IMG/VR virus record: IMGVR_UViG_2974730439_000001
Coordinates: 35,849-99,848 of that record
Strand: one strand, 5' to 3'
DNA: 64,000 nt
Source of the DNA: a virus
Taxonomy: Duplodnaviria > Caudoviricetes
This document shows, piece after piece, positions 4,021 to 64,000 of the stretch. Both the position numbers and the translations under genes were made by a program. Each line of letters begins with the position of its first letter. The first letter of the stretch is position 1. The notes beneath the pieces were generated by a model. It was not told the DNA's origin. It saw only the letters and a list, made by a program, of their open reading frames with translations, and made no database searches.

Positions 4021-4389
4021 ATGAAAAGAGAAGAAATTAAATCTTACAAAGATGCTTGTAAAGTAATAGGTAGAAAACCTAGAACTTATAAGGATAAGCA
4101 TTTGAATCTGTATGAACAGCTTAGTACAATTATAGCTACTCTAAATTTCATTAGTAATGATAATAAACCTTGGACACCTAAGTTCGATTATTATTACATC
4201 TATTCTTGGTTGCACAGAAAAGATGGATATAATAAAACTGCGGGTTTGTTCCATTTGTCTTCTAACGATGGGTTGGCCTCTTCCTTTGCTGCTGTCGGGA
4301 CTTCTCTGAAGATAAAAGAAGAAGAGGATGGAAATTACATAATGGAAAACTTTGAAGAACTACTCCAAGATTGGTTTTGGGGAGATTAA
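4021..4389 (+). CDS. small protein carrying a remote DGR variable region (second DGR target)
   Basis: Likely start ATG 4021 (MKREEIKSYKDACKVIG...); contains TAGLFHLSSNDGLASSFAAVGT, encoded by a TR-like sequence. Confidence 0.85.
   Translation: MKREEIKSYKDACKVIGRKPRTYKDKHLNLYEQLSTIIATLNFISNDNKPWTPKFDYYYIYSWLHRKDGYNKTAGLFHLSSNDGLASSFAAVGTSLKIKEEEDGNYIMENFEELLQDWFWGD
4237..4302 (+). repeat. DGR variable repeat VR2 (remote)
   Basis: 66 nt identical to TR (63690-63755, - strand) at all 43 non-A positions; 17 of 23 TR adenines are substituted. Confidence 0.93.
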
Positions 4390-6489: not shown

Positions 6490-6707
6490 CCCTAAACAAG
6501 TTAGTATGGTGCAGTCAACCCAAAACTACTATTATCAACCAGATCCCTAATGGAAGCTTAGTAACAACTAAGCTACTAAGCAAGAGTACAATGGACTATA
6601 CAACGGTCAACCAGTATCTAATATTGGTCTAAGATGAAGGAAAAGGGTTGCCTATGAATAAGAGATACGAATAAGTAGGATAGTAGTTTTTTAAAGAAAT
6701 TAAAGAA

Positions 6708-6980
6708 ATTGACTGTTAGGTCTATTGAATCATCGTAAGACTTCCGTTCGAGTCGGAAATGCTCCACTAAATTAAAACAAGGAAGTTATTAGGTTTCTTA
6801 GCCGTTAGGTTGCAAGTCCTATAAAAAAGAAACCCTTATCAATGGGGCATACAGGTTTTGATTGCGATAGTGAAGGTAGAATAGGTCAATAAGCAGATAA
6901 CTGGCAATACAAGTTATATTATGAACTATAGCCGTATTGCGGCGTAAGTTCAAACGGCTAAGCTAATGTCGTAGAAAGCT
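6708..6980 (+). ncRNA. ssrA: circularly permuted (two-piece) tmRNA
   Basis: 3'/acceptor piece 6708-6766 (GAC-TTCCG-TTCGAGT-CGGAA-ATGCTCC-A) lies upstream of the 5'/coding piece starting 6844 (GGGGCAT-ACAGGTTTTGA). Acceptor stem has G3:U. Helix 2a TTGCGAT/ATCGTAA. Resume ATAACT|GGC, tag GNTSYIMNYSRIAA* at 6903-6947. Outer ends are approximate. Confidence 0.88.
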
Positions 6981-7043
6981 GGAGCATATCAGGCTAGATC
7001 AGACGTAAGGGCTGTGAAGGGTTCGATTCCCTTCAATGCTACA
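6981..7043 (+). ncRNA. truncated tRNA-like element
   Basis: T-arm GAAGGG-TTCGATT-CCCTTC; imperfect acceptor GGAGCAT/ATGCTAC; no proper anticodon arm. Confidence 0.5.
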
Positions 7044-8758: not shown

Positions 8759-9307
8759 ATGAAAGAAGAAGAAAAGCTTCTTGTAGAGCAAGCTAGAGAT
8801 GGTTCCGAAAGAGCTTTTAGTACACTTTATAATACTTATAAAAAGACTGTTTGGTATACTGCTTTTAAAGTAGTAAACAACGCAGATGCAGCAGATGATA
8901 TAACATCCCAAGTATTTACTAAAGTATATTTAAAGCTTAAATCTTATACACATCACTTATCATTTGAGATGTGGTTAAAGACTATTACAGTTAATACTGC
9001 AATAGATTATATAAGAAGGAACAAAAAAGAGCAATTGAATAACTATATTGATGAAGAAGATTCTACAATTCAATTAAATGGATTAGAGCATAGTCCAGAA
9101 GATAATCTTATATTTCAGCAAAATATAAATATTGTTATGGATTGTATTCCTCGTCTTAAGAAGAAATATAGAGATTTAATTTATGCTCGGTTGGATGGAA
9201 AATCCTACCAACAAATTTCAGAAGAGCTTGCTATTCCAGAAGCGACTGTAAAGACGTGTTTGAATAAAGCAAGACAAAGACTGAGAGAGATGTTTAACAA
9301 ATATTAA
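8759..9307 (+). CDS. ECF-type RNA polymerase sigma-70 factor
   Basis: Region 2 (AADDITSQVFTKVY...FEMWLKTITVNTAIDYIRR) and region 4 HTH (SYQQISEELAIPEATVKTCLNKARQRLRE). Confidence 0.92.
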   Translation: MKEEEKLLVEQARDGSERAFSTLYNTYKKTVWYTAFKVVNNADAADDITSQVFTKVYLKLKSYTHHLSFEMWLKTITVNTAIDYIRRNKKEQLNNYIDEEDSTIQLNGLEHSPEDNLIFQQNINIVMDCIPRLKKKYRDLIYARLDGKSYQQISEELAIPEATVKTCLNKARQRLREMFNKY

Positions 9308-29618: not shown

Positions 29619-29634
29619 AATAGGTCCTTTATTT
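29602..29634. terminator. bidirectional terminator at the convergent strand switch
   Basis: AAAGGACCTATT-GTGA-AATAGGTCCTTT between convergent genes. Confidence 0.85.
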
Positions 29635-32600
29635 ATTCTCCTAAAATTTGTTTCTAATAATAATTACGTTTACTTTGGATATCCTTAAGCTCCCATAAGT
29701 TTTTAAAAGGTGTAAGTTTCCATAGAGCTCTTTCAAATTCAGTCATACCTTTATATGCTCCTTTTTTTATTACTTTATTACCGTCAAAACTTTCCTCTTT
29801 AAATAGACTTCTTGTAGTATTAAATAACATATTAGCTGGAGCAGACATAACTTCTGTAGCATTTTCTATATAAGATATAATTGCAGAAGGACTTTTAACA
29901 GTTCTAGCTATATCAAATATATTATAAGGAGCCATAATTTCAAAAGAAGTTCGTTCTGTTACATAAGCAAATAACTATTTTAATTTATTTTTCTTATCAT
30001 CATCCGCTGAGCTCGATATTAGAGGTCGTAGTAATTGAGTAATTAGAAGCCACAAAGATATTTCTGTCGTAATTTTTGCTATATTTTCTCTAACTACTGG
30101 GTCACTTAAAAACTCTCTTCTAAATGCTAATAGAATATTTTCATTATGTTCTATCGCCTAAGTAAATATTCTATAAGGAGTCTAGAAAACCGCTTCTTTA
30201 TATCTTCTGGTCTAATAATCTAGCTATCTACTCATTAGAAAACGTTCTTGAAGAATAACTGGTAAATACTACCTATGCATCATGACAAACTATCCTGCCG
30301 CATTAGCAAGAATTACAGATCTCTATAAATCTGTTAATTGTCCGTCTGCAGATTGAGATAACTATCTAGCTAAATATCCAATTTCATTTTTGACAGCATC
30401 TACTGCAGATTGATTTGCTGGATCTTTAGCTACCATTTCTCCTCCTATAAACTATATCGCATCTCTAAATGTTAATTTATCTCCAAAGTTCCAGTCTAGA
30501 ACATCACCAGGTTTAAACACTTTTAATACATATTTTTGCTTATATGCCTCTCTAGACATAAACTATCTATTACCATTCTCATCTATAACTAATTTATAGT
30601 TGTGCATAATAGAACCAAGTATCTAGCCTTTAACAAAATGATCTTGCAATGTATATATACCAAAACCCCAATGTTTACTAGTCATATTAAGTAATTTATT
30701 CCTATTAGTAGGATTCAGCTGCATTGTAGCACCAACTTCAAAGTATTCCATACATTTGGTCATAAAAGGAGTATATGAAGTTACACCAAGTTTATTTGGT
30801 ATATTTACTACCAGATCGCTTATCATATCTTTAAAAGCATAAGATGCGTCTACTGGATTATAGTAACGCTAAACTAAAGAATTGACTATGTGAGAGTATA
30901 ATGCAGTAAAACCGCCTGTAAGAGCACACCATAGATTTAACGCTAAGTTTCTAGCTGTACCTAAAGTTCTAAGTATAGCTAACATTTTAGTAACATTTAT
31001 TTCTCTTGGTTTACTTATATCATAATTAATAAGATTGAATATACTACCTTTATATGGCACTATACCAAATAATTTACCACTTTTGTTATTACCGTAGCTT
31101 ATAGTAACAGTCTGACTCTTAATATCATAAAGATTCATATCTATAAAGGCCTTTGCAAACTTAGCTACATTGGTTTCATTCGTTTTTACCTATCCACTTC
31201 TATCTAAGTATTTTTTGCCTAGTATATGAGATTTAAGTAACTCTACTTTAGGTTGAATTTCTTTTTTATATTTCCATTCCTTAGCAGACCTATAATATTC
31301 TATTACACTGCCAACAGCATCTGCTTTTAACACAGCAGGATTGTCTAATCTAGCAATATAGTTCTATGGTATAAGGTTAAGTCTTTCTCCATTCGGTTTA
31401 TTAAGGGCTTTATTAAATCCTTTATCATCATTACGTACAGATAATTTATCTTTAAACCACTCAGAAAATCCTTTAAATGGAGCAGATAGTTTATATAAAC
31501 CTTTAGAAGCTCTCCATTCAGCGCCAATATATCTGTATAAGCTACCAGATATTTGTGGAGTCCTATAAGGATATATTTTACTTAAATTGGTATATTCCGC
31601 ATTAGCCTCAGCCATTGTCTGTAGTAAAGCATCATATAATGCTTTAACTTCTGGATTATTCTAAATTTTATTATATCTGTCCGAGGAATCGTATTTATCT
31701 TCTTTAGGAATCCAGTATTCATCTTTTAATTCAGGGTGATCTACCTGAGCTTGATAATAGGCTTCATTATAAAAAGGGCTATCCTTAGATACTTCTAACC
31801 AGTTGTTATTAGGTACTCTTTCGATTAAACTTTCATCCTTAGGAACAAGTTTAGTATACCAAGATTTAGGAACTGTTTTAATACTTACTCTGCCATTACT
31901 ATCCGTGCTTTTAATAGTATATGCATTAGCTTGTAGCCATAGTTGTGCAGATTCTGGGTCATCGTTTAGCAATGAATCATAAAACTTACGTTTATCTTCA
32001 TACCACTATTTTGTAGGAACAGTTTTTGCAATTTCATCAAACTCATATTCCCCAGGAATAGTAGAAGCTTTCTTTTGTTTCCTTATTTGAGTCATTCTAC
32101 GAGATATAGCGCTAAGTGCATTTTTAGTCCCTTGAGGCAGATTATTAGCATCTATTTCCCCAGTAGAATCTTCTCGAAACATAGACAATATGGCTCTTCT
32201 ACGTTCCTATAATGCTGCGTACTCTTCTCCGTAATATTTTTTAGCAGCTTTATCTAGCATTTGATAAAACTTTTCTTTATACTATACTTTAGAATTAAGC
32301 TCCAGCCATTCATCTTTTTGAGCTTGTGTAAGCGTTTTATCGCTCATTACACGAGCTTTTTCTTTTTCATAAGCTTCGCTATTCTTAGTCAATACAATAC
32401 CTTCAGAAAGCTTTTTATTAAGTTCCTATAGTTCTTCCGCTACCTATAATTGGATGCCTTGTTTTTTACGGCCATTTATATCATATATACTAGCTAACTA
32501 TTTTTTTTCTAACTAATGCTTTTTTAATTGAGCTCTTTCTTGGGGATTTAATCTTTCTAGTCTAACTATACCGTAATTATCTCTAGCTTTATTTTGTAGG

Positions 32601-35170
32601 TTACGAATATTTATTTGTATAGATTCCCTTTGCTACTGTGTTTCATTACTAAGGTGATTGAAAGCCTCATAATAATCAGCAGTAAAACGCCTTTCACAAT
32701 GTTCCGATAACCATTTATTTCTCAGTTTATTATATTCTATACGTATTGCTCTATTTTCTGGTAAATTTAAGTCAGTAATATCAATACCTAATTGCATACA
32801 AATATTATCCATCTCTTTTTTGTACGCTTTTTCAAATTTCCCATAATTTCTAGACCTTACAAAATATCCAGTGGTGTTACCATCATCATCTATCTCAAAT
32901 AGCTATAGTTGATTATATTTATTAGTTTTCTATAACAGTTCTATTAACTAGTTTTGTTTAGCGTAGGTATCTTTCCTTACTTTTTCTTCGGCTCCATTTA
33001 TAAGATAAAAAATAGATTTTATACAATCGTCCTTTATTTTATCTCCAGCACCAAATAAATAAGTAAGATAAGATATATCCTTATCGTAAGATGTAATATC
33101 AGTCTATTCGTATCTATATATGGTAACAGCTCCTACTTCTACTCCAACATCTTTTAGTATTTTAGATGCATTTCTAGCTATCTAGCTTTTAACTATAAGT
33201 TGCCCTTCTGTTAATAAAGCCTAGTACGACTTGGCTCTCTTTATCAATCTATCTAGTTTGTAGTTGCCATTGCCATCTTTACCTACTATTTCTCTATAGG
33301 GTTCCCTATATATCAGTTGCTGAACTATATCGTCTATTATACCAACATAAAAACTAAAGAAATTCTAGTCTAAATCATTAAGTTTAGTATCATCTATTAT
33401 TTCATTATTTTTTCTAGCTTTTATTAACATTTCAGATGCTGTTTTAATTTCATCTGCTGATTGTTGTAGGAAGTTATTAATACTTTCATAGTCTGATACT
33501 AAACCCTGAGTAATATTCTAAATTTGCCACTCCATAGTTTTTTTAGCTTGCTACTCTACTATAGGATCCGGATGTTTAAATATTTTTAAACGAGATTGTA
33601 GCGCTTCATTTATACTTTGCGCTAAATTATGAGTAATTTTTTCAAACTATTCTTTATCTTGTTCTATCTAATCTAACTGGGATTCCATATTAAAGATAGC
33701 TTGTTGCTACCTAGATACTAAATCGTTAGTATTATCAAAAAAGTACTAATAGGGAATATTATTATCCACATTAAATGATATTAAATCTAACAATTCTCCC
33801 TGTATTACTTCAATATCTTGTTGACTATACTATTTTGTGAGTAGATTTACTATACTTCGCCATATTTTTTGTAGCAAATCTTTTATTGAATTTACTTCAT
33901 TTTTATTTGCCATATCATTTATAATGTTTTCTACAAATGACTAGTTAGTTAATAATTCTGAAGTGAATTCATATATATCTTTTAAACCGTAATAATCTCC
34001 TGTTTCTTTTTTAGGGCCTTCAATTAGTAAAACCTTTTTATAAAGTTTATTTATTGTATCATATACATATTTCTCTTGCTAAGAGAAATTTTTGCCCTAT
34101 TTTACTCTATATATACTGCTTACTGTATAAGCATGCACTATCTCATGCATTAACGTTCTGATATTTTTATCAGTACTCTGCATTGAAAAAGTTGCAGGAT
34201 TAATTCTTATTGTATTATTTGTTAAAGAATAATCCATATACTAAGTATTAGCAGACAATTCAATTAATATATTACTATCCTTAAACAAGTTATACAGATT
34301 ATCAAATCTACTTCCGGCATAGTAGAACTATAGTTGCTACAGAGCATTAGAAACTGTAGTTACAGCGTCTTCATGGAATATTTTCTATAAAGTATAATCT
34401 AACCCTATGTTAGGGTCGTACTCAAAAACAGATTCTGCTTTAAAGATACTATCATCCTAAGTAGAGAAGGCCCCGCTATTATCTATAGATTTAACAAGAT
34501 TAGGATTACTTATAGAATATACCGTTCCATAATTCTATTTTTCGTAATCATTCCAAAACATTTCTATATCAGAGATATCAAAATTCATTATACCTTCACC
34601 TACATCTTTCACGTGGCTGTATATTACACCATCGTAATCTGCATTTGCAGACAATCTCCTCTATCCAGGATACTGCTTCTCTACAGCATCTCCAATTTCT
34701 TCTCCTTTTCCATCTATTGTTAATGGATTACGGATGCTTAAAAATACTTTAGTAGGAAGACCAGAATAAGTAGCAGCAGTCATATAGTCACCAAAGTAGA
34801 TATCGCCATATTCATCCCCCTTAAATACTTTTATATCTTCATATCCATTGTGATAAACAATTAATGGTTCTCCATTTTCATCTACTATCTTTGATGAACC
34901 TTCAACGTTGTTTATCCAATCACCAAACCAATTTTTAAATTCGTCTGTAAACACTTTTACTTTAGCCTTAATAGCTTGTTCACGATTGCCATTATAATGG
35001 CTCAAAAGATCTGAAAACAGCTTAGAAGGCTCCCCATTGGGAGCCTGATCTATAGCATGACCGTTATTTTCAGACACTACGTAATATGCAGCGTCTTTAC
35101 TACCTAATACTGTAGTAAGTTCGTCTACTGCTGCTTTTACTTCTTTATTATCTAAAATTAAACACTGCAT
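29633..35170 (-). CDS. ~1845-aa virion cargo / polyvalent protein (TAG=Gln) with ART-like and zincin domains
   Basis: Seven ORF-track fragments share one frame and end at TAG; terminal TAA at 29633. FKNWFGDW..SKIVDENGEPLIVYH near the N-terminus; HEIVH at 34133-34147. Confidence 0.8.
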
Positions 35171-35172
35171 AA

Positions 35173-38100
35173 TTACTTACATTCTTCTTTACGTTTTTTA
35201 CCATTTTTTTTCAGATTATTCACAGTACCTTCATTTATTTCAGTGATATCGTCAATAGGAGTTTCTACACTATCTATGATTTCTGTTATGAGTTCAGTAA
35301 CATCAATAGCCTCAGGTTCTGGAGTTAAATCTTCAAATTCTATTCCACTGTCAGTTTCCATCCCATCTAAATCTGATAATAATGTATCATCTATATGATT
35401 TATATTATCTACTTCAGATGGATCTGAAGAACTATCAACAAATTCCTCAGGAGATATAGTTTCTGATGATGCTATTTCCTACTCCTAAGTGCTGCTATCC
35501 TATATTTCCTAATCAGTATAGTTATCTGTTTGATCTAATTCTATAGAAGCTTTTTCTTCTATATTATCGTAATTAGAATAATCTACAGAGTGATAACTAT
35601 CATCTTTCACAAATACAATGGGGTCTTTTCCTCTTAATAACTGAACTCGCTTATCTATTAAATTAAATACATTATTTATCTAATCTAACATTTTATCAGT
35701 GAAATTATTAGTATCAAATGCTGATGGTTGATCACCTTCTTTATACAACTCATATATTGAGTTAGAACCAGCATCATATCCCAATTTAGGTACTACTGTA
35801 TATATTCTTTCAATGGTCTTTCCAGTATCAAGATTCACTATATCCCCTATTCTTTGGTATACGTCAATATTATTACCTGTACCTACTATTTTGAAGAATT
35901 TATAGTTTTTAGATATATCATAATCTCCTCTCACACTTATAACAGTGTTAACGTTTACTCTAGTTTTACTAGTAGCTGATGCTAAATTAACTACATTAGA
36001 TACTCGTTCTCCACCTTCATCATCACGTCTAACTCTTCTAACAAATACAGGTACTATGTCATTATCTCTCCAATAGTTTCTTACAAGATTCAAATATATA
36101 GAGTCTACCCAATCTGACGTATTATTACTATTTACTACAGATGTATCTCCATAATTTAATTTGTTAATAGCGTCAGCAATAGATGATACATAACCTAATT
36201 TTCTCTTATATGACATAGGTACTAAATTAAAGAATGAATTAGGAGTTCTGTTATCGTAGCTAGTTAAAAATGAATATTTAACTAAAGTTTCGGCAAATTC
36301 TCTGATAGTATTATCTTCACTAGTAAGTAAGTCATAAAACGCGGATCTAAGTCTATCTTCATAATACCTAGAGTTATTCATAGTAGATGTAGACGTATTT
36401 ATATAACTTATATTCCTTTTATTGTTAGAGGTTACCGCTTGTAAATAGTTAAGTAGTTCGTTTGTAATATTTCCAGATTCATCTACAAAAGTTATTAGAT
36501 TAACATTATCCTTATTAACTCTAATATAATTTTTTATACTATTTAATCTACGAGCAATGCTATCTTTTCCAAACAGAATACTGTTTATATCACTATCAGT
36601 TAACATAAGATCAGTATTGTTGGCTGTTACTTTAGCTCTAATTATACTTTCTACTTTATTAGAAAGAGCTCCAACATATTCCTTATTACTAGTAGCTTTA
36701 TATTTAAATAATATAGATTTACCATTATTAGTAGGAGTATAGTTTCCACCTCTTATTTGCTGTAATATAGAAGTAAGTATTTCTTTATAACCATTCGTAG
36801 CTGCAAACACTTGTGATCTCAATATACTATTTGATAAATCCATAGCATATATTAACTTCTTATGTAAGAACGTATTTCCAAAGTAAACGTCTAGTCCATT
36901 TGTATCTACTGTATCAGTAAAGAATTTTTCTTTATTATCCTCTATAAATGTAGTATAAGAATTATAAAAGTTCTATAATTGAGATAAGTTATTACCATAC
37001 TTCTTAGTATCTATCTAAGATCTTTGAACTAAATCTGCCATAGTTTGAGCATCAGAAGCTAAATCTTGATATGCTTTAACAACTAATAGTTGTTGAACTA
37101 TATCTTGAGGAGTGATATCATTGCTTCTAAAAGATTCTAAACTACTAGCAAGCTTAGATTGATTAAACGCATCAATACTTCCATTCTACACTAGCTACTC
37201 AATCTGCTTTTTATAAGTATCTGATAAAGGGAATCTATTTAGCATATCCCAATATTTCTATTTTATATCAGAGAATATCTAGTTATCGTACTACTTACTA
37301 ACTCCGATTACTCCTTCATTCATAATCTTTCTGTTAGCGTACTCTTTTAACGCTGGCTGCGCTAAGAATAAGAATGTATTTCTACCTTTACCTGTTCTAA
37401 GTAAGAAACTAGCCATGTTATAAGTAACTTTATTAACATTCAACACGATTATATAAGGATCTTTAGCAACGTCTACGTGAGCGTTAATCATGGCAGATAA
37501 CCAATCAAGTATCTTATAACCATCCTATCCAGTTATTTCATCAAATTGATTTAAATTGTATTTACTAGCTCCTTCAGAGAATTTCATTCTAAGATGAGTG
37601 GCCTAAGTAAGGCAATGATTAGTAGAATTTAAAGCAAAAGGAGCAATACCGGCTTTACCAGACGTGTATTCTGTTTTTCTAGATTCCTAGAACGAAGGCA
37701 TAAGTTCGTACATAGGTTCAGCTTCTTTCAGTTCTGTAGTCTATACTAATGGTAATATTTCTTTTTTAAGGATACCAGTAAGAGTATCAATAGAAGCTCT
37801 AGTTTCTGCTAGCGTCTTCTTATCTGAGATTACTAAAGTATAACTATCTAATAACTTATTAATTAATGCGCCTTCTGTTTGTTCTACATATGATTTAGCG
37901 TTGTTATTCCAAGTATATCTTTCATTAGTTTCAGGATCATACGCATAAGTAGCTATGTACAATTTATCAATATCGAAGTCAGATCCAGTCATAGCTGTAA
38001 ACTCATCAGGTACTACTATAGTATCTCCAGTTTGAGCAGGTAATACGTCTGCTACTATAAACGAGAATGTTGATGACAAACCCTGAGTAGGGATACGATA

Positions 38101-41100
38101 GCCAATACCATAAGGTTTAGAATTGTTGCCTATTACATTATGCTCTATTAACCAACTTCTCATAGTAATATAATCGGTCTAATATTCCTAAGGAACTACA
38201 TCTCTGAAGAAATTAGTACTTAACATAACTTCCATGCTACCTTTATCTGGATCAAAACTAAGTTTCTTTCCGTCATTAAAAGGTCTGGCAGTTTCCTCAT
38301 TCCATACTTGATTAGCTCTAAATCCAAATGATGCCATTTGAATAGCAGAACCACCTGGAGTATTTACATCTATAACCTCTTTATTAATAAGCGATATTAT
38401 TTTACTCTCAATCCAATTACGAGTACTTAATGATGCAATAGGAGCTCTGAAATTACCTTTCTTATCTAATGCGAGTGCTTCTGTAATTTCTGCAGACATA
38501 TTAGTACCTTTAGCTTCCTATATAAGATAGTTTGATAACGCTTTATTGTTTATTCTACCATTCTTATCAAAGAATCTACCGGCTACTCCGTTACTGCCTT
38601 TGAGTTTCATGTAACCCTTGGTAGACAAAGCTTTTATACAACCAAATACATCCTTTTTAATCCTAGCTCCAGATACATTTTGACCTTTATTATGACCATA
38701 ATGGCGATCATCTACTACATTACCAATACATATTTTTACTGCCTATGTACCAAATGATCTATCAGTATGTTCATGTGGTTCAGTATTTAACTGTAACCTA
38801 AGTTGTTTTATATCTTGTACTTTAGTAGTAAGACCTCCATTAAGTCTTTCTACTACAGTATCCTAATTTATAACAGTTGTAGAGGGAGAATTAATAGCTT
38901 CTATATTGAGCTGAGTATTTCTATTATCTTTATATACTTTAAGCTTATCTCTAGTAGACCCTACTTTGGTTGAAGATTCAAATTTCAACATATCAATAGT
39001 ACCCAGTTGTTCATTGTTCATTCTATCATACAGATATTTATTATCAGCATTAGCTAATATCTTGAACATAGGGAATAACGCCATTTTATCAAACACTGGT
39101 ACATTTATATCTGATACCTCATCAAAATGGTCACCAAAGTACATCATTTTTAGTGGTTTGATTGAAGCTCTTAACGCTTTTGCATATAGTTCGGGATTTC
39201 CAAGTACATTCTAATTACTTTCGAGTATATTATAAGCTTCTTCTATTTCTGGAGACCATTCTCCTAAAGCCTACATAATACGCTTATAAAATGCAGGTCT
39301 GATATATACAGCAGCATCTGCCTAATTGATATTACCAGAATTGTTTTCATCATCATAGGCATATGGATCTGCTGATTTTACAGCTTGTTTTTCAATAAAC
39401 TTGACATCATCAACGCTCAATTTAGTACGATCTTGCATAGTATTATCAAAATGCTTATCGTCTGTAAGTTTAAATAATTCATCATCTGTCAAACTTGGAT
39501 TATTTTTCTTAAGCATTGTTCTAGCTAAATCAGCTTTAAATATTTGTTCAAGTCTACTATGATATTCAGAACCTATCATATTATCCTACAATATAGCACT
39601 AGTGTATTTAGTACTATTTCTAGGATCATTATCTCCCCAATGTGTTCTAAGATTAGTACCAGTAGATAGTACAGAGGATAAACGTTTAATCTTATCAACA
39701 TCCCTTTGAAATATTCCTACAATTTTATCAGATTTCCATTTATAAAATGCAGGGTCTCCAACGAAACACTTCTCTATTTCCTCTATAGATATAGCATAAC
39801 CGGCCACATAATTAGCTATTATACTATAGATAATATCATTCTGAGTAATAGCATTAAACTCTTCTGGTATATGTGATACTAAGGTTTCATAGAATGCAAA
39901 TGGGTTAGCATTTTCCTAATCTTCTAATACAGAAGTAGAAGGCAAATTGCCGTACTACAAATTGCCTTTTTTATCTCTAGATATTACTCCTAATTTTATA
40001 GCCTATTCTATCTCTTTATCTACTTTATCTATAAGCAGAGTATTCATAGAATCTCTAAGCAAGGCTCTATCTTCTATTAGTTCTGTTCTAATACGGTTCA
40101 GAGCTTGAGTTATTAACTCAGGATTTCCTGATTTCTCTGCATCATCTAACATACGATTAAGACTAACTGTAGCTCCATTTATAGGTAACTAGTTAAAATA
40201 ACGGAATCTACCACCGTTACCACCAGGAGCCATCTTTCCATCTTTACCTATTTCGCCATGATAATTATCATAGAATCTAGATTTACCTTTTTCTACATCT
40301 TCTTTACTATCGAAATATTTTACTATAGCATTGTATTCATCTAAGAAGTAATTACAGAATATATCTAGGGTTTCATTAGAGAATCTACGAGGAATTATAG
40401 TAGCTTCCATAGAACCTTCGGCATTAGGAGAGTACTTTATAGTGCCTAAAAAGTCTTTTGGTAATTTAATACCTTCTATACTATACCAAGTCTTTTTATC
40501 GGACATAGTTGGTAGTATTAATCTACCTTGATGCACTAACAATAGTTTAGCTATATAATCTTCTAATGGAGTAATTCCAAAATAATCTCTACTAGAGTTG
40601 GTTATATTATCTCTAATAGCAATAAGAGTGTGTAGTTTAAGTTTTGGTTTATCAGGAGAAGTTAAAGCTTTAACTATGAGAGAATTTGCGCTATATGCAG
40701 ATCTAGCTATATTATCTAATTTGTTATAAGCATTAGTATTTAACCATCTAAGCTAATCAGACATATAGTTGTTCTAAGTAATAGGATACAGCAAACTACC
40801 GTCCGCTCCAGTAACACTGAATTCTTCAGGAGTTGGATGCATTTCTCCGTAAGCTATCGCCATTAGGTTAATTACAGCATTAGGACTTTTATAATTGAAT
40901 ATACGAGATGCAGATATAGTTTGTCTCTTAAATTTAGCCTCTAGACTCTTTGCGTTATTCATTAACCTGATGTTGTGCATTATAGAATTACTAATAGACC
41001 CAGGCATATTTTTATATAATGCACTAAATACAAAGAATTCAGGATAGTTAGTAGAGTTAGTATTTACTTTTCTCAATAAATAATTCAAAGATTCACTATC

Positions 41101-44100
41101 AAAAGGTATACCTATTGCATTTAATAAGTTTAAAAACCTTTCCTTAGTATGTTCAAACTATTTTAGTCCTTGATTACGTATATCAGCATTCTTACTATTT
41201 AATCGCTTTTGTATCTATTCTATATCACTTAGTATCTGTTTATCTAATTTAGCTAATTCAGAATATCTATTCGTATTTATACGTGACCTATTGTTTTTAT
41301 CAGTAAAGATTAAAGAAGATAACATAAAGTTCTGAGACCACTGACTCGGTAATCTAGCTATCTTTCGCAGATTACTACTATCCATTACTGTCCATACTTT
41401 TCCTCCTCTTCCTTTAGTATTCTTCTGTATAGTTCCTGTAGAAGTATCAAATATATCTACAGTATCCATACTGTTTTTTGCACTTTGTATAGTAGTCAGT
41501 AACTGAGTAACTGTATTTTCTGGTAATGAATATGCAGGATTATCTATTCTATCAAGTAAAGTAGCAAAGAATGGATCCGCTTTAGCTAAGTTTCTTACTC
41601 TTCTTATCAAATCTGGCCAATCGTTAGATAACCATAAATTATCTAATATTTTATTCCACGTAATATCAAAAGATTGTGCTACATCTAAACCAAATATATT
41701 ATCTTTTACAGTATCTACTATTTGATTACCATTTTCGTCTGTAACAAATTTGGATTGAGGAATAGAATAGAAGAATAATTTGGCGTTAAATGCTACATTT
41801 GCTTTCTTACTTATCTCATATGAAGCTCTATCCCATACATTGTCGTAAGTATCTCCTGAATCTTTAGCTTCTTTCTCTGCTATTTCTGCTTCTTCACGTT
41901 CTATAGCCCTAATACCTAACTCTTGTAGATACGCACGGATCTATTTAGCAAATAGACTTTTATTACTGAGCACATCGTGCACCATCTACTTTTTAGACTC
42001 ATTGTAATCATATTCTCTAGCATCATATAAATATTGAATATTATCAAATACATCATCTAATTTTAGATTTTGTATGTCTTCCATACTTCTAATATTAAGT
42101 ATAGATAGTGCTGTATTACTTAAGGTTTCTACTATGTTATACAGAGTATTGGCGTTGGCTATATGAGGCATATTTTCCTATTCCTTATTACTTATACCTG
42201 GAGCATAATAACCTATACCAACATCATATTTCTTATTAAATTCCTCGAGAGTATCTTGATCTAACTGCGCATTCTTAAAATTGCCTTTTCGTATTTGATT
42301 GAACACTTGATTTTGTAGGCTAAGTTCCTTTCCTGCGAATGCCATTACTAAGTCCCATATAGCTTTAAAGAATTTTTTTATTCTGTAAGTCCAGGTTGGA
42401 TTTACTTCTTTAAGCATATATGCTTTAAATTCTTCTGCTAATTGCTCTTCTATTTCCTATTTAGTGCTATTAGAATACTCAGGATTTCTTTTTACATAAT
42501 CTGAGTATATCTAATCCCTCTGTGCAGGAGTTAATAATAACAAAGATACGTAATGCCATGCCTCATGATATTCTACTCCTGCTCCACCTTTAGTAGATAG
42601 AACTATTCTAGCTACAAATTCATCGTGTATACGATCAAATACAGATTGTAATAAACCATATGCTGATGGAGTATTAATAGCTCTCATAGCAGCATTAGTT
42701 ACCATTACATCATCCGGATCTATACCCAAAGTATCATGTAACCATTTTTTAGCAGCAGCAATATCTAAGGTGCCTTCTCCTCTTACTGTGGAGAATACGC
42801 CTTTATTACCCAACATCTTCTATAATACTCTACTATTATTGGGTAATATAACATATTTACCATCTGCTTTACGTACATACGTATAACCTTGTTTTGGAGT
42901 AAGACCTGCAGCAATAGTTTCATCATAAGTAAGAGCTTTATCTTGCTATGGTAGTTCTATAGTAGTAGTTTTTTTAGATTCTTCTGTAGCTATTTCGTCA
43001 GAAGGCTATCTGGGTTGCTCATATTTAGGTTCTACAGTAGCAGTTACTTGTTTAACTTTCTCATTAGTAGATTGTTTAACCTATTCGATATTACTAACTT
43101 CAGCAGTTTCTGCCACAGCTGCATCATCGGCATACACAAAAGGATCTCTAAAAGCTCTATCTCCAACATCAGTTTTAAGCACCTGATGGTTTATCATCCA
43201 AGACATCAGTATAGGAGTACCATCTTTACGAACCACTTTACCATCAGTATCTCTTGTAAGATTTAAATCTTGCATAGTAAATACCAACTCATCACAGTTC
43301 AATACGCGATAATAATCAGTATTGTACTTATTCATATACTCGATAGCAGCATTTACAATGTTATCTGAAATAGGATTCATCATAGCTTCTTTATCGGTAT
43401 TCCAGTGTAAATTATTTGATATTTGTCTGATTACATCGTAAGCTTGCTGATCTGTAAATACTATCTTGCCGTTCGTATTTTTTATTTTCAGATATTTTAA
43501 TACGTAAGATCCATCAGGTGTTCTAGATGCATACATCAAGAAACTACCCTTAGTATTAGTGTAGTAATGTAAAGTTTTACGAACATAAAAAGATAGTTTT
43601 TCTACACGATTATCTCCTACAGTTACTGTGCCTGGACCGTAATTTACTAATATATCTAATATATCTAAGAATTCAGGATTGTTAGATACAGGTAACGTCT
43701 AAGTGACTAATCTAAATAATAATTCTGCAGTGCTAAGCGGCACACGTTTACCGTTATCGTCATATTTGGCTTTACCATCTGGAGTATAAGAAGTTATTAG
43801 GTTCTTAGATCCTCCCTATATGAAATGTCTCTTTTCTGCTAACATTATTGGAGCACTACTTCTCTAAGAAGGAGTATTGTCTACTTTAGGTATTATGTAT
43901 ATTTTACCTGCATACCCAACCCCTTGAGCAGATGCTTTTGTTACTTGATCAAAATTTACTATAGTAAATCTATCAGCAGGGTCCATTGGGAATGGGCCTT
44001 TACCATATCCAAATTCTACTTCTCCGTTTAATATCTGATTAGACATCTATATAGGATCTGAACTTAAACCAAATTCCTATACTTCAGTAAGAGATCTATA

Positions 44101-47100
44101 TACAGGTCTTTTTCCTTCAGATGCCTAACTATTAATAGAACCATTACTTTGTCTTAAGTTAACTGGAATTATACCTTTAGGAGCCACTTGAGGTAAAGTA
44201 GCAGATTTGTCTACAAAATAGTTAGGAGAGTATGTTTTAATATATTTGTCTATAATACTCTTACGCAATTGTCTAAGTTTATTTATTTCACTATTAGTCT
44301 TAGAGCTGCTTACGTTCCAATTACGCATTTTAGCTCTAGCTTTATCTGGTTGATATAAAGCTAGATTGTATATTAATTTCTTACCATCTTCCGTAGTTTC
44401 TTCGATAATTAAATGTACTGCCATTCTATCTGCAGCATCTCTCTCAGATTTTCGTGTCTCCTTATTATCTGTAACTATATAGTAAGCTTTCTATTTAGAT
44501 AACCAGCCCGGTATGGCTAATTTAGATGCTAATTCTATTCCTGGTCTACGCTCTCCATCAAATTGCACAGGTTTACCATTAGCTTCAATAGGCATTACTT
44601 CTGTAGAATTAAAAGCATAAAAGAAGGTAGAATGTATTCTATTAGTTTCTACTTTCTTCTTAGTATCTAAACCAGGAGATTTATCAGTCTAACCTAAATA
44701 ATTTGCTGCTTCCTAAGTAGTAGCCATATCTACAGCGTCCACCTATTCAAACTGCCCTTGCATTTCTATCTCTTCGTCACTCACCGGAGATCCTAAAGAC
44801 GGATCTTCATTACCTACCCAAGTATCAGTTCCATCTGTATATATTACGTCATCCTAAGTCTCTAAAGGAACTTCTACAATTTCATCAGTAGATCCGTCAA
44901 ATGATTCTGGTGTAAGATTAATAGTGGGATTTATCTACTTTGGACTGATTGGTTCCTAGCGCTTAGTATTATATGTAGACTATTCAGACTATACCTCTTC
45001 TTCTGTAGTAGTAATATTTTCAGTAGAAGTTACATCAGAATCTTCAACATTACCTATATCTGCGATAGGCCCGCCATCTTCTATAGTATCATACTTAGCT
45101 TTTAATTCATCTATCTCTAAGGTATTACTATCTACGTTGTCAGTGGCAGCTCTATCCTAATCGTTAGCGGAACTCTACGTTATTTCTGTTACATCATTAT
45201 CCTCTACATATTCTTTATCAGATACTTCATCTAGCATAGCATCAATATCGCTAACTTCTCCAGTATCTCCAGTATTATCAGTTACCTCATCCACTTGTTC
45301 TTCTGAACTATTAGTAGCAATTTCATCAACTGGGGTGTTTACAGAGCCCCTATCAGTATCATCTGATATACTATCTATAGTATGCGCGGATTCCTAGGAT
45401 GTTTCTTTCGTATCGTCACCCTGATTATTATCTGGTTCTACCTATGTTTTATTTGATGATTCCTCTGTTGAAACAGGTTGACTATCTATAGGAGTGTCAA
45501 ACTCTTCCTAATTTTCTACTTGGGCTTGCTATAAAGATTTTCTAGTATTACGTAAGTCTTCTCTAAATATAGCATTAGCTAATGTACGTTCGTTAGCTTC
45601 TACATTAGCACTATTTTCTATATCACTCCAACTCTAGTTAATCTTATGATTATAATAACTTATCAGTTGCCTTCTAGTAGGTTCTTCTTGAGTCTGATGA
45701 TCCTCTTTATATTTCTCTGCATACTCAGTTAATACAGACTATTTTTCAGAATCATCAAGAGTACTCCATAAAGGTTTTCTTTCTACTAAGTATCTATTAG
45801 ATATAGATAATCTACCAGTATTATATGTATTTAATTTTGTAGATATGATATTTATTATTCCTGCATTAAGTATAGATGGAGCCAATACGTTTTCTAATTC
45901 CTCAATATTAGCAGGATCTTGTAGAGTATTAAATGTTCCCTTAAATAAAGTATTATCTAATTTACTAAGCGAATTTTTGATCTCTCTCTAACGTTTTTTT
46001 ATAAATTCCTGTAAACCATTTATACCTTGTTTAGATATATCTATTCCATATTCAGTTTTGATTTCTTCGAGAGTTTTTTTACGCTAGTTAAGATCTTTAT
46101 TTAATCTATCTAATACTCTGCTAGTAGCTCTAGTAACAATAGAGTTAATAATAGGAGCTCTAAATTCAGATAATTGTATTGCCGTCTAACCTTCAGCCAA
46201 ACTGTTAGTATATTTCTCATACTACTGTTGAATGAATCTATTTAACGGAGAATCAATACTTTCATTAAATATCTGTTCTATTTTTTCTGTTACTTTCTTA
46301 TCTGATAAGTCAGCCAATTCAGAAGCTTCATTAAAACTATTAATTAATTCTACATGATTTTGTACGAACATCTCGAAATCTTTACCAGATTTACGATTTA
46401 TTCCCAGTTCTTTTAGATTATTATCTATATCTTTGTTCTTATATATACCATATACTATACGAGAAGTTTCTATATCCTCGTCAATCATTTTATCAGTAAC
46501 ATCTGTACCTTTATATCTCTTTAATTCTTCTATACTATTACGTAAGTATTCAGGAGTATTCCCATTACGATAAGAATCTAAAAATTGTGCTACTTTGAAG
46601 CTTCTATCTACTCTGTCAAGGTTTCTAGCAGAAAGTTCCTAGATGCTTAAATCAGATTCAATTTGTTTTCTAGTTCTATTAATTTGCTATATATCGGGTC
46701 CAGCTCCCATAAGAGCACCAATAAAGCTACCAATACTCATTGCTTTTCGCAACTGATCATCGGTATTATACATATCATTCCAATGTAAGCCGTTATATGC
46801 TAGTGTAGCTTCAACAGCGGCTGTACCAGATTGAATTATACCATCTAAAAAGCTGTAAGGAGACTCCGTCTGAGTGCCATCTACAGGTATATCTGAATAT
46901 CTCTTTTGGAATATAGACTGTTGCCCTTCCTCAATTCCTTCAGATATAGCTCGTTTTCCAGTATGTAAAGTAAAGTTAGCTATAGATTCTAGAGCTCTCT
47001 TAGTTGCTACTTTCTACATTGGATTATCGAAAACTTTGTCCGCAATCTTATTCGTTCTATCTTTTACTGCTTCTATTAATTTTCTAGTTCTAGCATTTTT

Positions 47101-48654
47101 CATAGCTGCAGTACCTATACCGTTAGCTATAGCTTTAGCCCCTATGGTATTATTTACTACTTTTCCAGTATAAGATAAACCAAAGTTCTACAGGTAATCG
47201 CTAAGCGCTAGAGCATTATTACCTTGTTCTATTTCAGTAAGACCAACTCTAGCATCTTTAGCAAACTTATTATAGTTCTAATCACTAGTTTGAATATTAT
47301 ATGCTAATCCAAATTGAAGCTTTTCAAGGTCATCCATAGAGGATACATCATATCCTCTGGATTCCAATCCAAACTCATAATCTTTCATAACTTTATTAAT
47401 GTCAAACTTATCAGAGTTCTCTAATAATTTCTGTGTATATGATGATAGTACTTCTGCAGCAGTTTCTTTATGTCTAAAGTAGGCTGTACTAAGTAGGTTG
47501 ACTCCAGTTTCTCCTAATGCCCAAAGACCAGGATGTTTAGATGCTCTACCACCCCACTTAACGAGATGAGCTGTAGCCATAGTGGCTCCCATAGCTTGCA
47601 ATTCTGACAAACTACTACCAAGATGTGTTAATCCATACTTATATGTGCTAGGATCAAATAAAGAAACCTCTACTTCCTATCTCTATTTGTCAAAAGCAGG
47701 ATCAATTTCATCTGGATCATAAGTAATCCCCAAAGGTACTATTCCAAGTAGAGGATCATGCAACATATGCTTTGTTTTTAGAGCTTTCTGCTTAGCTTTA
47801 ATTTCAGACTCCTTTTCAAATAGTGCCACATTAGCATCCTCTAAATTCTTGTTCAATCTATCTAGTTTGTTAGATAATTTAGCTGCCGCAGTTAGTCTAT
47901 CATTTAATTCATTATTAGTCTAATTCCAAGATAAGTCAATAATATATTGATTTCTATTATTCTACAATATAGAATTCATGACATCTCTAGATACAGCCTT
48001 GGGATACAATTGTCCAGGATGTGTAAACGCAGGTTCTATAGCCTAACCGTAAAATATATCTCTTATGTATGGATTAGTTTTAGCTGCTTCTTTTACTTGT
48101 TTTTCTAGCTCCTGTACCTCAGACATTACCTTAAAGTAATCTGGACCATCTACAGATAATTCTCCTAGTAATGTTTTTTGCTCTAAGTAACGTTTAGCGA
48201 TCTCTATTTCCGGTATCCATTTGCCTTCTGTTTCCCTTAACTCATTTACTCTAGCTTGAACATTTATAGATAATGCATCACGTACATTTATATTTACAGC
48301 CTGGTCTATATAACTAGAATCATTTCCGTTTTCTCCCTTATAGTTATCAGTAAATAATCCTATTACAGCCTTACTTAAATCAGAAGCAAAATCGTATGAT
48401 GAACCTACACCAGGTAATTTTTTAGTGGATTGTTCTTGTTTCTCAGTTATTTCCGATTCTTCAAGTGAAGTATCATAATCTTGTATATTATAATTAAGTT
48501 CTTCTTCTAACTGATTCCAAGCTTCATTTCTAACAGCTCTAGTACCAGTCTAACCAACATCAAACGTATTTAAAGAGCTAATCCCCGATTCAGAGAAATC
48601 GGGGGCAGTTCTTTTATAGTTTATTCTATTATGACTTAAACTTGTTCTATCCAT
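35173..48654 (-). CDS. ~4493-aa virion RNA polymerase polyprotein (TAG=Gln)
   Basis: All minus-strand ORF fragments from 35173 to 47610 are in one frame with ATG 48654. Contains RIPTQ...GSDFDIDKL (crAss/phi14:2-type catalytic DxDxD) and zincin HEAWH. Confidence 0.85.
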
Positions 48655-62513: not shown

Positions 62514-62539
62514 TAACGATAAGGTTTATTTAAGGTTTC
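62514..62539 (-). promoter_or_regulatory. candidate ECF-type promoter (GAAAC-N16-CGTTA) for the lysis cassette
   Basis: Same motif as at 272-298; about 100 nt upstream of the holin ATG. Confidence 0.45.
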
Positions 62540-63552
62540 TATTTTGAAAATCTTCTTGCATAAACTAATAGCTCTTTATAGCGTAATATCTTCTTTAGTA
62601 AGTTAATGCCATTACAATGCTTAAGCCAACCTATATGACTACACATTTCTTGTTTGTAATCTTCTACTGTAATGTTTTTCTTTCTGCCTAATCTAGCAGC
62701 TTTCCTACACATGCTACGCTTAATATTTTTTCTTACTAAAGTATAGTCATGCCTTATTACATAACCTACAAAAGATATACCTCTGTCTTCTACTTTAAAT
62801 ATCTAATAGTTATCTTTGAAAGTTAATTTTAAAGTATCTAAATACTATTTCATTTCTTCAAACAGTTCTCGTAAATACTCTTTATCCTTATGTAGTATTA
62901 CTATATCATCTGCATATCTAAAGTAATATTTAACCTATTTATCTTCTTTAAGCCAGTGGTCAAAGTAAGTAAGATACAGATTAGCAAAGAACTAAGATAA
63001 GTAATTACCAATAGGTACACCTTCTGCTGAATCTATTATCTCATCTAATAACTATAATAACTTCTAATCCTTTATCTTCTTTCTTATTATGCTCTTTAAT
63101 ACTTCATGGTCTATACTAGGATAGAACTTTCTGATATCTAACTTAAGACAATAAGTAGTATTATCTACATCTTTTAAAGCTTCTTTAACATTATGTAATG
63201 CTTCGTGAATACCTCTGTGTTTAATGCAACTATAAGTATCTTTAATAAAGATAGATACCCATATAGGTTCCATTATATTCATTACAGCATGATGTACTAT
63301 TCTATCTGGATAATAAGGTAATCTAAATATTAATCTTTCTTTAGGTTCTCTAATTATAAATGTATTATATTCAGAAGTTTTATACGTACCGTTAATTAAA
63401 TTCTGCTATAGTTTTTTAAGTAATTCTTCTTTATTCTAGTCAAACTCTTTGATATCTTTTCTACTAGATTTATTTCTTCTAGCTTTCTTATCTGCTAAAT
63501 ATAAATTGTCTAAGCTAACAATCTTATCGAATAAATTATTATATCTCTTCAT
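62530..63552 (-). CDS. DGR reverse transcriptase, 340 aa (9 in-frame TAG)
   Basis: MKRYNNLFDKIVSLDNL...EPKERLIFRLPYYPDRIVHHA...KLDIRKFYPSI...GVPIGNYLS(Q)FFANLYL...YFRYADD...GISFVGY. Confidence 0.95.
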
Positions 63553-63689
63553 AAATAATATTTTCTGAAATACCTTCACGCATCTTCACTTTCGTTACCA
63601 ATGCGTTCAAGAAGCATGTCATATTTTACCAAGAGGTAAGGTTCAGCCCTTGATTTTTTGTCAGTTTATAATTTTTTTACGTATTTCAG

Positions 63690-63800
63690 TGTCCTGACAT
63701 TAGCATTGGAATTGTCTAACTCATTGTTAGAATTCAAATTGAACAAACCTGCATTAGACTCATTGTCTGAGTTACTGCTGATTTACTCACGACTGCAACC
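63690..63800 (-). repeat. DGR template repeat (TR)
   Basis: AAY-rich: ...AAC TCA GAC AAT GAG TCT AAT GCA GGT TTG TTC AAT TTG AAT TCT AAC AAT GAG TTA GAC AAT TCC AAT GCT AAT GTC AGG ACA; lies upstream of the RT. The 5' limit is approximate. Confidence 0.92.
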
Positions 63801-63813
63801 TTTTATTGGTTAA

Positions 63814-64000
63814 TTAAAACCAGTTTTCTTCAGATTCTATAGAATCCAATTGTTCATAATCCTCATCATTTAACTCTAATGTAGCTGGAGCAGCTGGCAA
63901 TGCCGGTTCACCATAGAAGGTAATTCGAGTCCCGACAGTAGCAAGGGAAGCGTCCAACCCAGCGTCAGAATCCAAACGGAACAAACCCGCAATAGACCCA
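63814..64000 (-). CDS. 3' end of the local DGR target gene
   Basis: ...GSIAGLFRLDSDAGLDASLATVGTRITFYGEPALPAAPATLELNDEDYEQLDSIESEENWF*. Confidence 0.85.
   Translation of the reverse strand, partial: GSIAGLFRLDSDAGLDASLATVGTRITFYGEPALPAAPATLELNDEDYEQLDSIESEENWF
63928..64000 (-). repeat. DGR variable repeat VR1 (truncated by window edge)
   Basis: 73 nt with 18 differences from TR, all at TR adenines. Confidence 0.95.

Follow-up and report, generated by a model that had tools for sequence, protein, structure and literature searches.

A probable two-target DGR in a crAss-like phage of the Suoliviridae, with one template repeat and a remote variable repeat in a small gene

Results

A DGR cassette and a remote variable repeat

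The DNA analysed here (the window) is a 64,000-nt stretch (bases 35849-99848) taken from a viral record of 99,848 bp. The record is circular, with a 55-bp overlap between its ends. The closest record to this phage is crAss-like phage cr53_1 (Crassvirales; Suoliviridae; Loutivirinae; Blohavirus). At the end of the window, on the minus strand, lies a DGR cassette composed of a reverse transcriptase (RT), a template repeat (TR) and a first variable repeat (VR1), the latter carried by the 3' end of a tail-fibre-like gene (Table 1). The RT matches Pfam RVT_1 (2.1e-19) and phrog_1423 (1.8e-123), as expected of a DGR-type RT, and its catalytic motifs are kept, with YADD and IGxxxSQ readable in the translation. 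Its ORF contains 9 in-frame TAG codons, read as Q. Regarding other components of such cassettes, the whole genome gave no match to the Avd family PF05635 at E<=1; Avd is missing from roughly a quarter of DGRs. Inspection of the flanks revealed neither a distinct IMH/IMH* pair nor a GC-rich hairpin or inverted repeat downstream of VR1 or of the second variable repeat, VR2.

Table 1. Coordinates of the DGR components and target genes, in positions of the window unless stated otherwise.
Feature	Position	Strand	Remarks
Target gene 2 (P0001)	4021..4389	+	122 aa, soluble; phrog_11581 (unnamed family); VR2 = residues 73-94
VR2, remote variable repeat	4237..4302	+	3' 66 nt of TR; heavily varied core 4252-4292, plus 4302
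DGR reverse transcriptase	62530..63579	-	RVT_1 and phrog_1423 matches
TR, template repeat	63690..63790	-	66-nt core 63690-63755 common to both VRs
Target gene 1, 3' end, tail-fibre-like	63814..64000	-	~845 aa; wraps the circular junction to contig ~2415
VR1, cassette-adjacent variable repeat	63928..64000	-	~100 nt in total; runs beyond the window and contig end

The core of VR1 (63928-63993, minus strand) differs from the TR at 17 of its 23 A positions and at none of the 43 non-A positions. Once TR 63690-63755 is reverse-complemented, VR2, which lies on the opposite strand, gives the same counts (17/23 A and 0/43 non-A mismatches), and the 10 differences that separate VR1 from VR2 all fall on TR adenines. 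These figures had been given by a first-pass annotation of the sequence and came out exactly the same on recount. In both repeats, differences from the TR are found only at TR adenines, and the VR lies inside a coding gene. The probability that all 17 mismatches would land by chance on the 23 adenines among 66 positions is 4e-11. A scan of the whole genome (99,848 bp) with the TR non-A pattern returned three sites only, namely the TR, VR1 and VR2, with ~3e-21 chance sites expected genome-wide. VR2 covers about two-thirds of the template, compared to the ~100 nt that the TR has in common with VR1; the ~35 further 5' nt of the TR (to ~63790) are common to VR1 only. At their 3' ends VR1 and VR2 have only ~10 nt in common before they diverge, and no homology was found between their flanks. 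The annotation had put the second target ~59 kb from its template, which holds one way round the circle but becomes ~40 kb the other way, so that the distance is better given as ~40-59 kb.

One template adenine behaves differently from the rest. TR position 6 (window 4242 and 63750) is an adenine in a synonymous GCA codon, and almost every copy of VR1 and VR2 has a G there (44/46 for VR2). Since the codon change is synonymous, protein-level selection cannot explain why this position is not randomised.

VR2 encodes a predicted hairpin of a small soluble protein

P0001 was confirmed to be, as first described, the product of a 122-aa ORF with an internal VR followed by 28 aa, and to have neither a hydrophobic N-terminus (signal peptide) nor a TM segment, the maximum 19-aa Kyte-Doolittle value being 0.75. 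Its ORF contains no in-frame TAG. The protein matches phrog_11581 and has no match in Pfam. An AF2 model built on a 52-sequence alignment (pLDDT 83) has helices at its N-terminus, followed by a beta-hairpin (residues 77-92) corresponding to the VR and then by two C-terminal helices. Variable and fixed residues alternate along both strands of the hairpin, and one of its faces would be variable according to this model.

Searches for known relatives of the fold were largely silent. A sequence profile search of the PDB with P0001 gave nothing below E=0.5, and Foldseek against the PDB with two AF2 models (pLDDT 76 and 83) gave nothing at E<=0.001. In a wide VIA-align search, the two models reached best Z values of 4.9 and 4.0, respectively, with none at Z>=5. 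In BFVD, P0001 matched uncharacterised proteins only, the top ones from phage or crAss-like virus records, and in the ESM Atlas it matched unnamed viral clusters only. The sole similarity to a CLec-type tail came from hhalign of the P0001 family against the tail-fibre target, which produced a local match of 32 columns at the VR hairpin; among the BLASTP matches listed, those between P0001 and the tail-fibre target were at chance level only.

The P0001 gene belongs to a gene arm almost without in-frame TAG

The two arms of the genome differ in their use of TAG. ORFs of the plus arm (window 1400-29600, + strand) contain 0-2 in-frame TAG codons each, while the late minus arm (window 29633-64000, - strand, plus contig 2500-30300, - strand) contains hundreds, with 80 in a 4493-aa ORF (35173-48654) and 49 in an 1845-aa ORF (29633-35170). 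Despite this recoding, ARAGORN found no suppressor tRNA in the whole genome. We call P0001 a putative early gene because the plus arm is almost without in-frame TAG and the late arm is TAG-recoded. The first-pass annotation had placed it in an early region among host-interaction ORFs; the first part of that description agrees with the plus-strand arm being essentially without in-frame TAG, but no counter-defence genes can be recognised among its neighbours. The immediate neighbours are small ORFs without a family match, a divergent ThyX gene and an ECF-type sigma factor (window 8759-9307, +; Sigma70_r2 and r4_2, phrog_1740), located ~4.4 kb downstream of the VR2 gene. A sigma factor also lies ~5 kb from the P0001-family member of phage Versailles. 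ARAGORN predicted a permuted tmRNA gene at window 6677-7038 (+), with the tag peptide GNTSYIMNYSRIAA. In cr53_1, the P0001 homologue is annotated as hypothetical protein gp19.

VR2 varies between genomes at template adenines

The population evidence consists of comparisons between genomes. TR and VR2 loci were paired in 23 related IMG/VR genomes, and when each VR2 was compared with its own TR, 373 of 526 A sites differed, against 15 of 992 non-A sites. Clustered at 90% identity, the proteins recovered by a search made up 597 clusters; almost all measured 122 aa and were 85-92% identical. Among 119 cluster representatives of the 597, column entropy was above 3 bits at residues 78, 80, 82, 87, 89 and 91 and reached 2.99 at residue 83, and these seven residues are exactly those encoded by AAT or AAC codons in the TR. 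Residue 86 is G, D, A or V, matching a GAC codon mutated at its A, and the remainder of P0001 is nearly invariant among the same representatives. Inside the VR, the Gly residues 84 and 93 are fixed although their TR codons contain adenines.

At the nucleotide level, in an alignment of 46 related ORFs, TR-A sites had a per-site entropy of 1.27 bits, against 0.09 for the non-A sites of the VR and 0.14 for the sequence outside it. Outside the VR, entropy at codon position 3 was 0.21 bits, compared with 0.12 and 0.10 at positions 1 and 2; third positions being the most variable, this is a real coding gene under purifying selection. Four public runs were also read as Logan contigs, which gave one consensus contig each over the VR2 locus, a format in which rare variants are invisible. 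Between genomes, the VR is diversified at TR-A sites only. VR2 proved neither invariant nor variable beyond TR-A sites across the related genomes, the two outcomes that the first-pass annotation had set against its own proposal. These comparisons indicate that VR2 is a live DGR target and no relic.

VR2 is independent of VR1 and follows its own TR

At 17 core A sites, the mean match between VR1 and VR2 was 5.41 within the same genome and 6.00 between genomes (permutation p=0.96), and VR2 alleles were all different among 22 genomes. As identity between VR1 and VR2 is no higher within a genome than between genomes, VR2 is not copied from VR1. Regarding the template, where the TR has the T54G variant VR2 carries it too in 8 of 9 genomes, against 0 of 13 where the TR lacks it. 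In the RefSeq phages cr53_1, cr52_1, cr56_1 and cr60_1, whose TRs have diverged, VR2 presents 0-2 non-A mismatches to its own TR versus 5-12 to the TRs of other genomes. Non-A changes of the TR are thus passed on, and the pattern across these sequences indicates that information flows from TR to VR2. The proposal of one TR that serves a remote second target by independent mutagenic retrohoming, rather than by passive copying of VR1, is strongly supported by these between-genome data.

Related genomes also include cases in which the second target has decayed. Two RefSeq Buchavirus genomes, cr109_1 and cr113_1, were without an RT match. The VR-like segment of cr109_1 has drifted and matches only 34/43 non-A sites of a Buchavirus-type TR borrowed from another genome, and in cr113_1 the target gene is shortened to 85 aa. 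In a sister clade from IMG/VR (RT 74% identical), all five genomes examined carry a P0001 homologue. In two of them, 42-43 of the 43 non-A sites agree between VR2 and the genome's TR; in two others VR2 has drifted despite the RT, so the second target appears to be dispensable in some lineages. The fifth, whose TR itself seems depleted in adenines, was left out of the fit count. In one Buchavirus-like genome (L099:1306-1371), the repeat upstream of the RT, at the expected place of the TR, is short of many adenines and resembles a VR; this template may have been overwritten or inactivated.

The P0001 family is found in other phages with distal or adjacent VRs

An exhaustive search recovered relatives of P0001 at 30-45% identity. 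A subfamily at ~30% identity occurs in ~50-kb (pro)viruses, where an RT was present in 5/5 records tested and the family gene was directly upstream of TR-RT in 3/5. A-specific TR/VR pairs were found at these loci, some as tandem copies. In two ~50-kb proviruses (L144:5538-6600 and L151:5875-6930), two tandem family domains, each with a VR, lie directly upstream of a single TR.

The family also extends to LoVEphage-type phages and to Versailles. The LoVEphage protein QVQ57199 aligned with the P0001 family profile over 157 columns (hhalign probability 99.8%, E 8.5e-28), and tblastn likewise ties the family to LoVEphage, Versailles, PV4-TP1 and BI-TP1. Both LoVEphage and Bacteroides phage Versailles encode their family member amid genes for methylase, resolvase, NinB, SbcC and the replisome, and its VR matches a TR beside the RT that is ~14 kb off by the shorter path (in the 58-kb genome of Versailles, VR and TR are 44 kb apart by record coordinates). 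A further VR, located in the RT locus ~200-290 nt upstream of this TR, is served by it as well. In all, a distal VR that shares its TR with a tail-fibre VR was found in the phage studied here, in LoVEphage, in Versailles and in four RefSeq Suoliviridae. On the strength of these alignments, we assign P0001 to the family of LoVEphage-type distal second targets. In LoVEphage, the RVT_1 match of the RT falls in two separate pieces (L197/L198, 48183-48768), which agrees with the frameshifted RT of Quimbyvirus (Benler et al. 2021, PMC8008677).

Discussion

Non-adjacent DGR targets within phages have been catalogued before (Wu et al. 2018, PMC5758913). The Quimbyvirus DGR targets one structural protein and one distal, opposite-strand and apparently non-structural protein, encoded in a defence-related island, an arrangement that was called new at the time; the Quimbyvirus homologue, longer than P0001, was assigned to CLec by HHpred (Benler et al. 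2021, PMC8008677). Since then, a second VR, distal and in the vicinity of counter-defence genes, has been described in four temperate Bacteroidota phage species (Nature 2025, PMC12629997). In the Roseburia phage Shimadzu, VR2 was rewritten in 2% of virion reads in vitro and in 47% of virome reads in mice, with weak allele selection on this second VR compared to VR1 (10.1101/575076). Papers on crAss-like DGRs deal with tail-fibre targets only (PMC7290462, PMC11054128, PMC12386605), and no report of a second DGR target of this kind in Crassvirales was found in the literature searched. The second target described here is the first that we could document in Suoliviridae; distal non-structural targets of this protein family had already been published.

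The arrangement in our phage is that of Quimbyvirus and LoVEphage in that a single TR is the template for two VRs, one in the tail-fibre gene beside the RT and the other far off in a small, non-structural-looking gene of another transcription unit. LoVEphage, however, is temperate and ~71 kb long, whereas this is a lytic-type crAss-like podovirus of the Suoliviridae with TAG recoding. P0001 is also smaller than the LoVEphage protein (122 against 194 aa) and has a shorter VR (66 against ~120 nt), and, unlike in LoVEphage-type phages, no methyltransferase or counter-defence genes are recognisable near it. Shimadzu is likewise similar, as its orf43/44, of no assigned function, contains a second VR that shares its TR with a tail VR, but it is a Firmicutes siphovirus. 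The DGR of Bordetella phage BPP-1 (mtd-avd-TR-brt) resembles that of our phage in its RT, TR and VR, in mutating specifically at adenines and in acting on a tail protein that binds the receptor. Its only VR is adjacent and C-terminal, and it comes with Avd and with a defined IMH and hairpin, in contrast to the second, internal and remote VR, the missing Avd and the lack of a clear IMH or hairpin seen here. The DGR of crAssphage LMMB (Intestiviridae genus I, PMC7290462) presents the same target-VR-TR-RT order beside tail genes, also with no avd. It belongs to another Crassvirales family, and only its tail-collar fibre target was described, a second VR going unmentioned (PMC7290462).

We consider it very probable that this Suoliviridae crAss-like phage carries a working DGR with two targets and a single template. 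In such a system, the phage RT would copy the TR RNA, making errors specifically at adenines, and the cDNA would replace either VR1, at the tip of the tail fibre, or VR2, in the 122-aa gene on the opposite strand ~40-59 kb off. Rewriting of VR2 would randomise residues 78, 80, 82, 83, 86, 87, 89 and 91 of the hairpin and leave the intervening residues and the helical scaffold fixed. P0001 would then be a soluble non-virion binding module produced from the standard-code early arm, and its variable face may recognise a variable partner in the conflict between phage and host. As to the separate parts of this proposal, on balance we favour a non-structural protein. The function suggested by the first-pass annotation, an intracellular binder that might act in anti-defence or host takeover, is plausible, and a counter-defence role is put forward only tentatively.

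One could argue that P0001 is instead an accessory of the virion or of adsorption, such as a minor tail-associated or a released receptor-binding module, in which case both targets would serve host recognition. The hairpin templated by the TR is the same as that of the tail-fibre tip (the 32 columns aligned by hhalign), the depositors of Versailles annotate its homologue as 'tail protein', and the members in ~50-kb proviruses adjoin the TR-RT cassette, the usual place of tail targets. Yet that 'tail protein' label probably derives only from the VR motif. Moreover, P0001 is encoded in a TAG-free standard-code arm, apart from all the late TAG-recoded structural genes; in three unrelated phage groups the family gene is found among replication, recombination or methylase genes; the protein is without signal peptide or TM segment; and the alleles of VR1 show no correlation with those of VR2. 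We regard an accessory of this kind as unlikely.

It could also be that VR2 is a tolerated by-product, a stretch with chance homology to the TR that is struck by the DGR and whose variation is non-adaptive. The weak allele selection on the second VR of Shimadzu (10.1101/575076) and the drift of VR2 in some RT-bearing genomes would fit such an origin. Against it, the target has been retained in two genera of Suoliviridae as well as in Bacteroides phages unrelated to them, each with its own TR, purifying selection acts on the scaffold, and VR residues that are structurally required, such as Gly 84 and 93, stay fixed despite the adenines in their TR codons. We therefore judge non-adaptive variation to be very unlikely. 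Finally, a VR2 that is a passive relic, that is, a recombined copy of VR1 or of the TR whose rewriting has ended, would be compatible with one genome alone, given that later rewriting of VR1 also leaves differences at A sites only, but it is scarcely credible and is refuted by the across-genome data: VR2 and VR1 share no flank homology, 22/22 genomes have a distinct VR2 allele, variation is confined to TR-A sites over hundreds of clusters, and VR2 tracks lineage-specific non-A changes of the TR.

Returning to P0001 as a diversified non-virion binder, it is conceivable, if rather speculative, that its family constitutes a portable, DGR-diversified intracellular binder, made before the late genes, that would follow and neutralise variable host defence or exclusion proteins. 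If this were true, a single template would keep an adaptive counter-defence repertoire in step with the tail-fibre repertoire. The relatives in which no RT was found, with their drifted VR or truncated gene, provide a signal akin to a natural experiment, and cultured relatives exist in the LoVEphage-type temperate phages and in Versailles. crAss-like phages are among the most abundant viruses of the human gut, and in a lineage of Suoliviridae (Blohavirus and Buchavirus) a second hypermutated gene is maintained outside the virion module. The presence of the same family in LoVEphage-type phages and Versailles, as a distal target, and in ~50-kb proviruses, next to the cassette, points to a conserved use of DGR hypervariation in phages for purposes other than adsorption.
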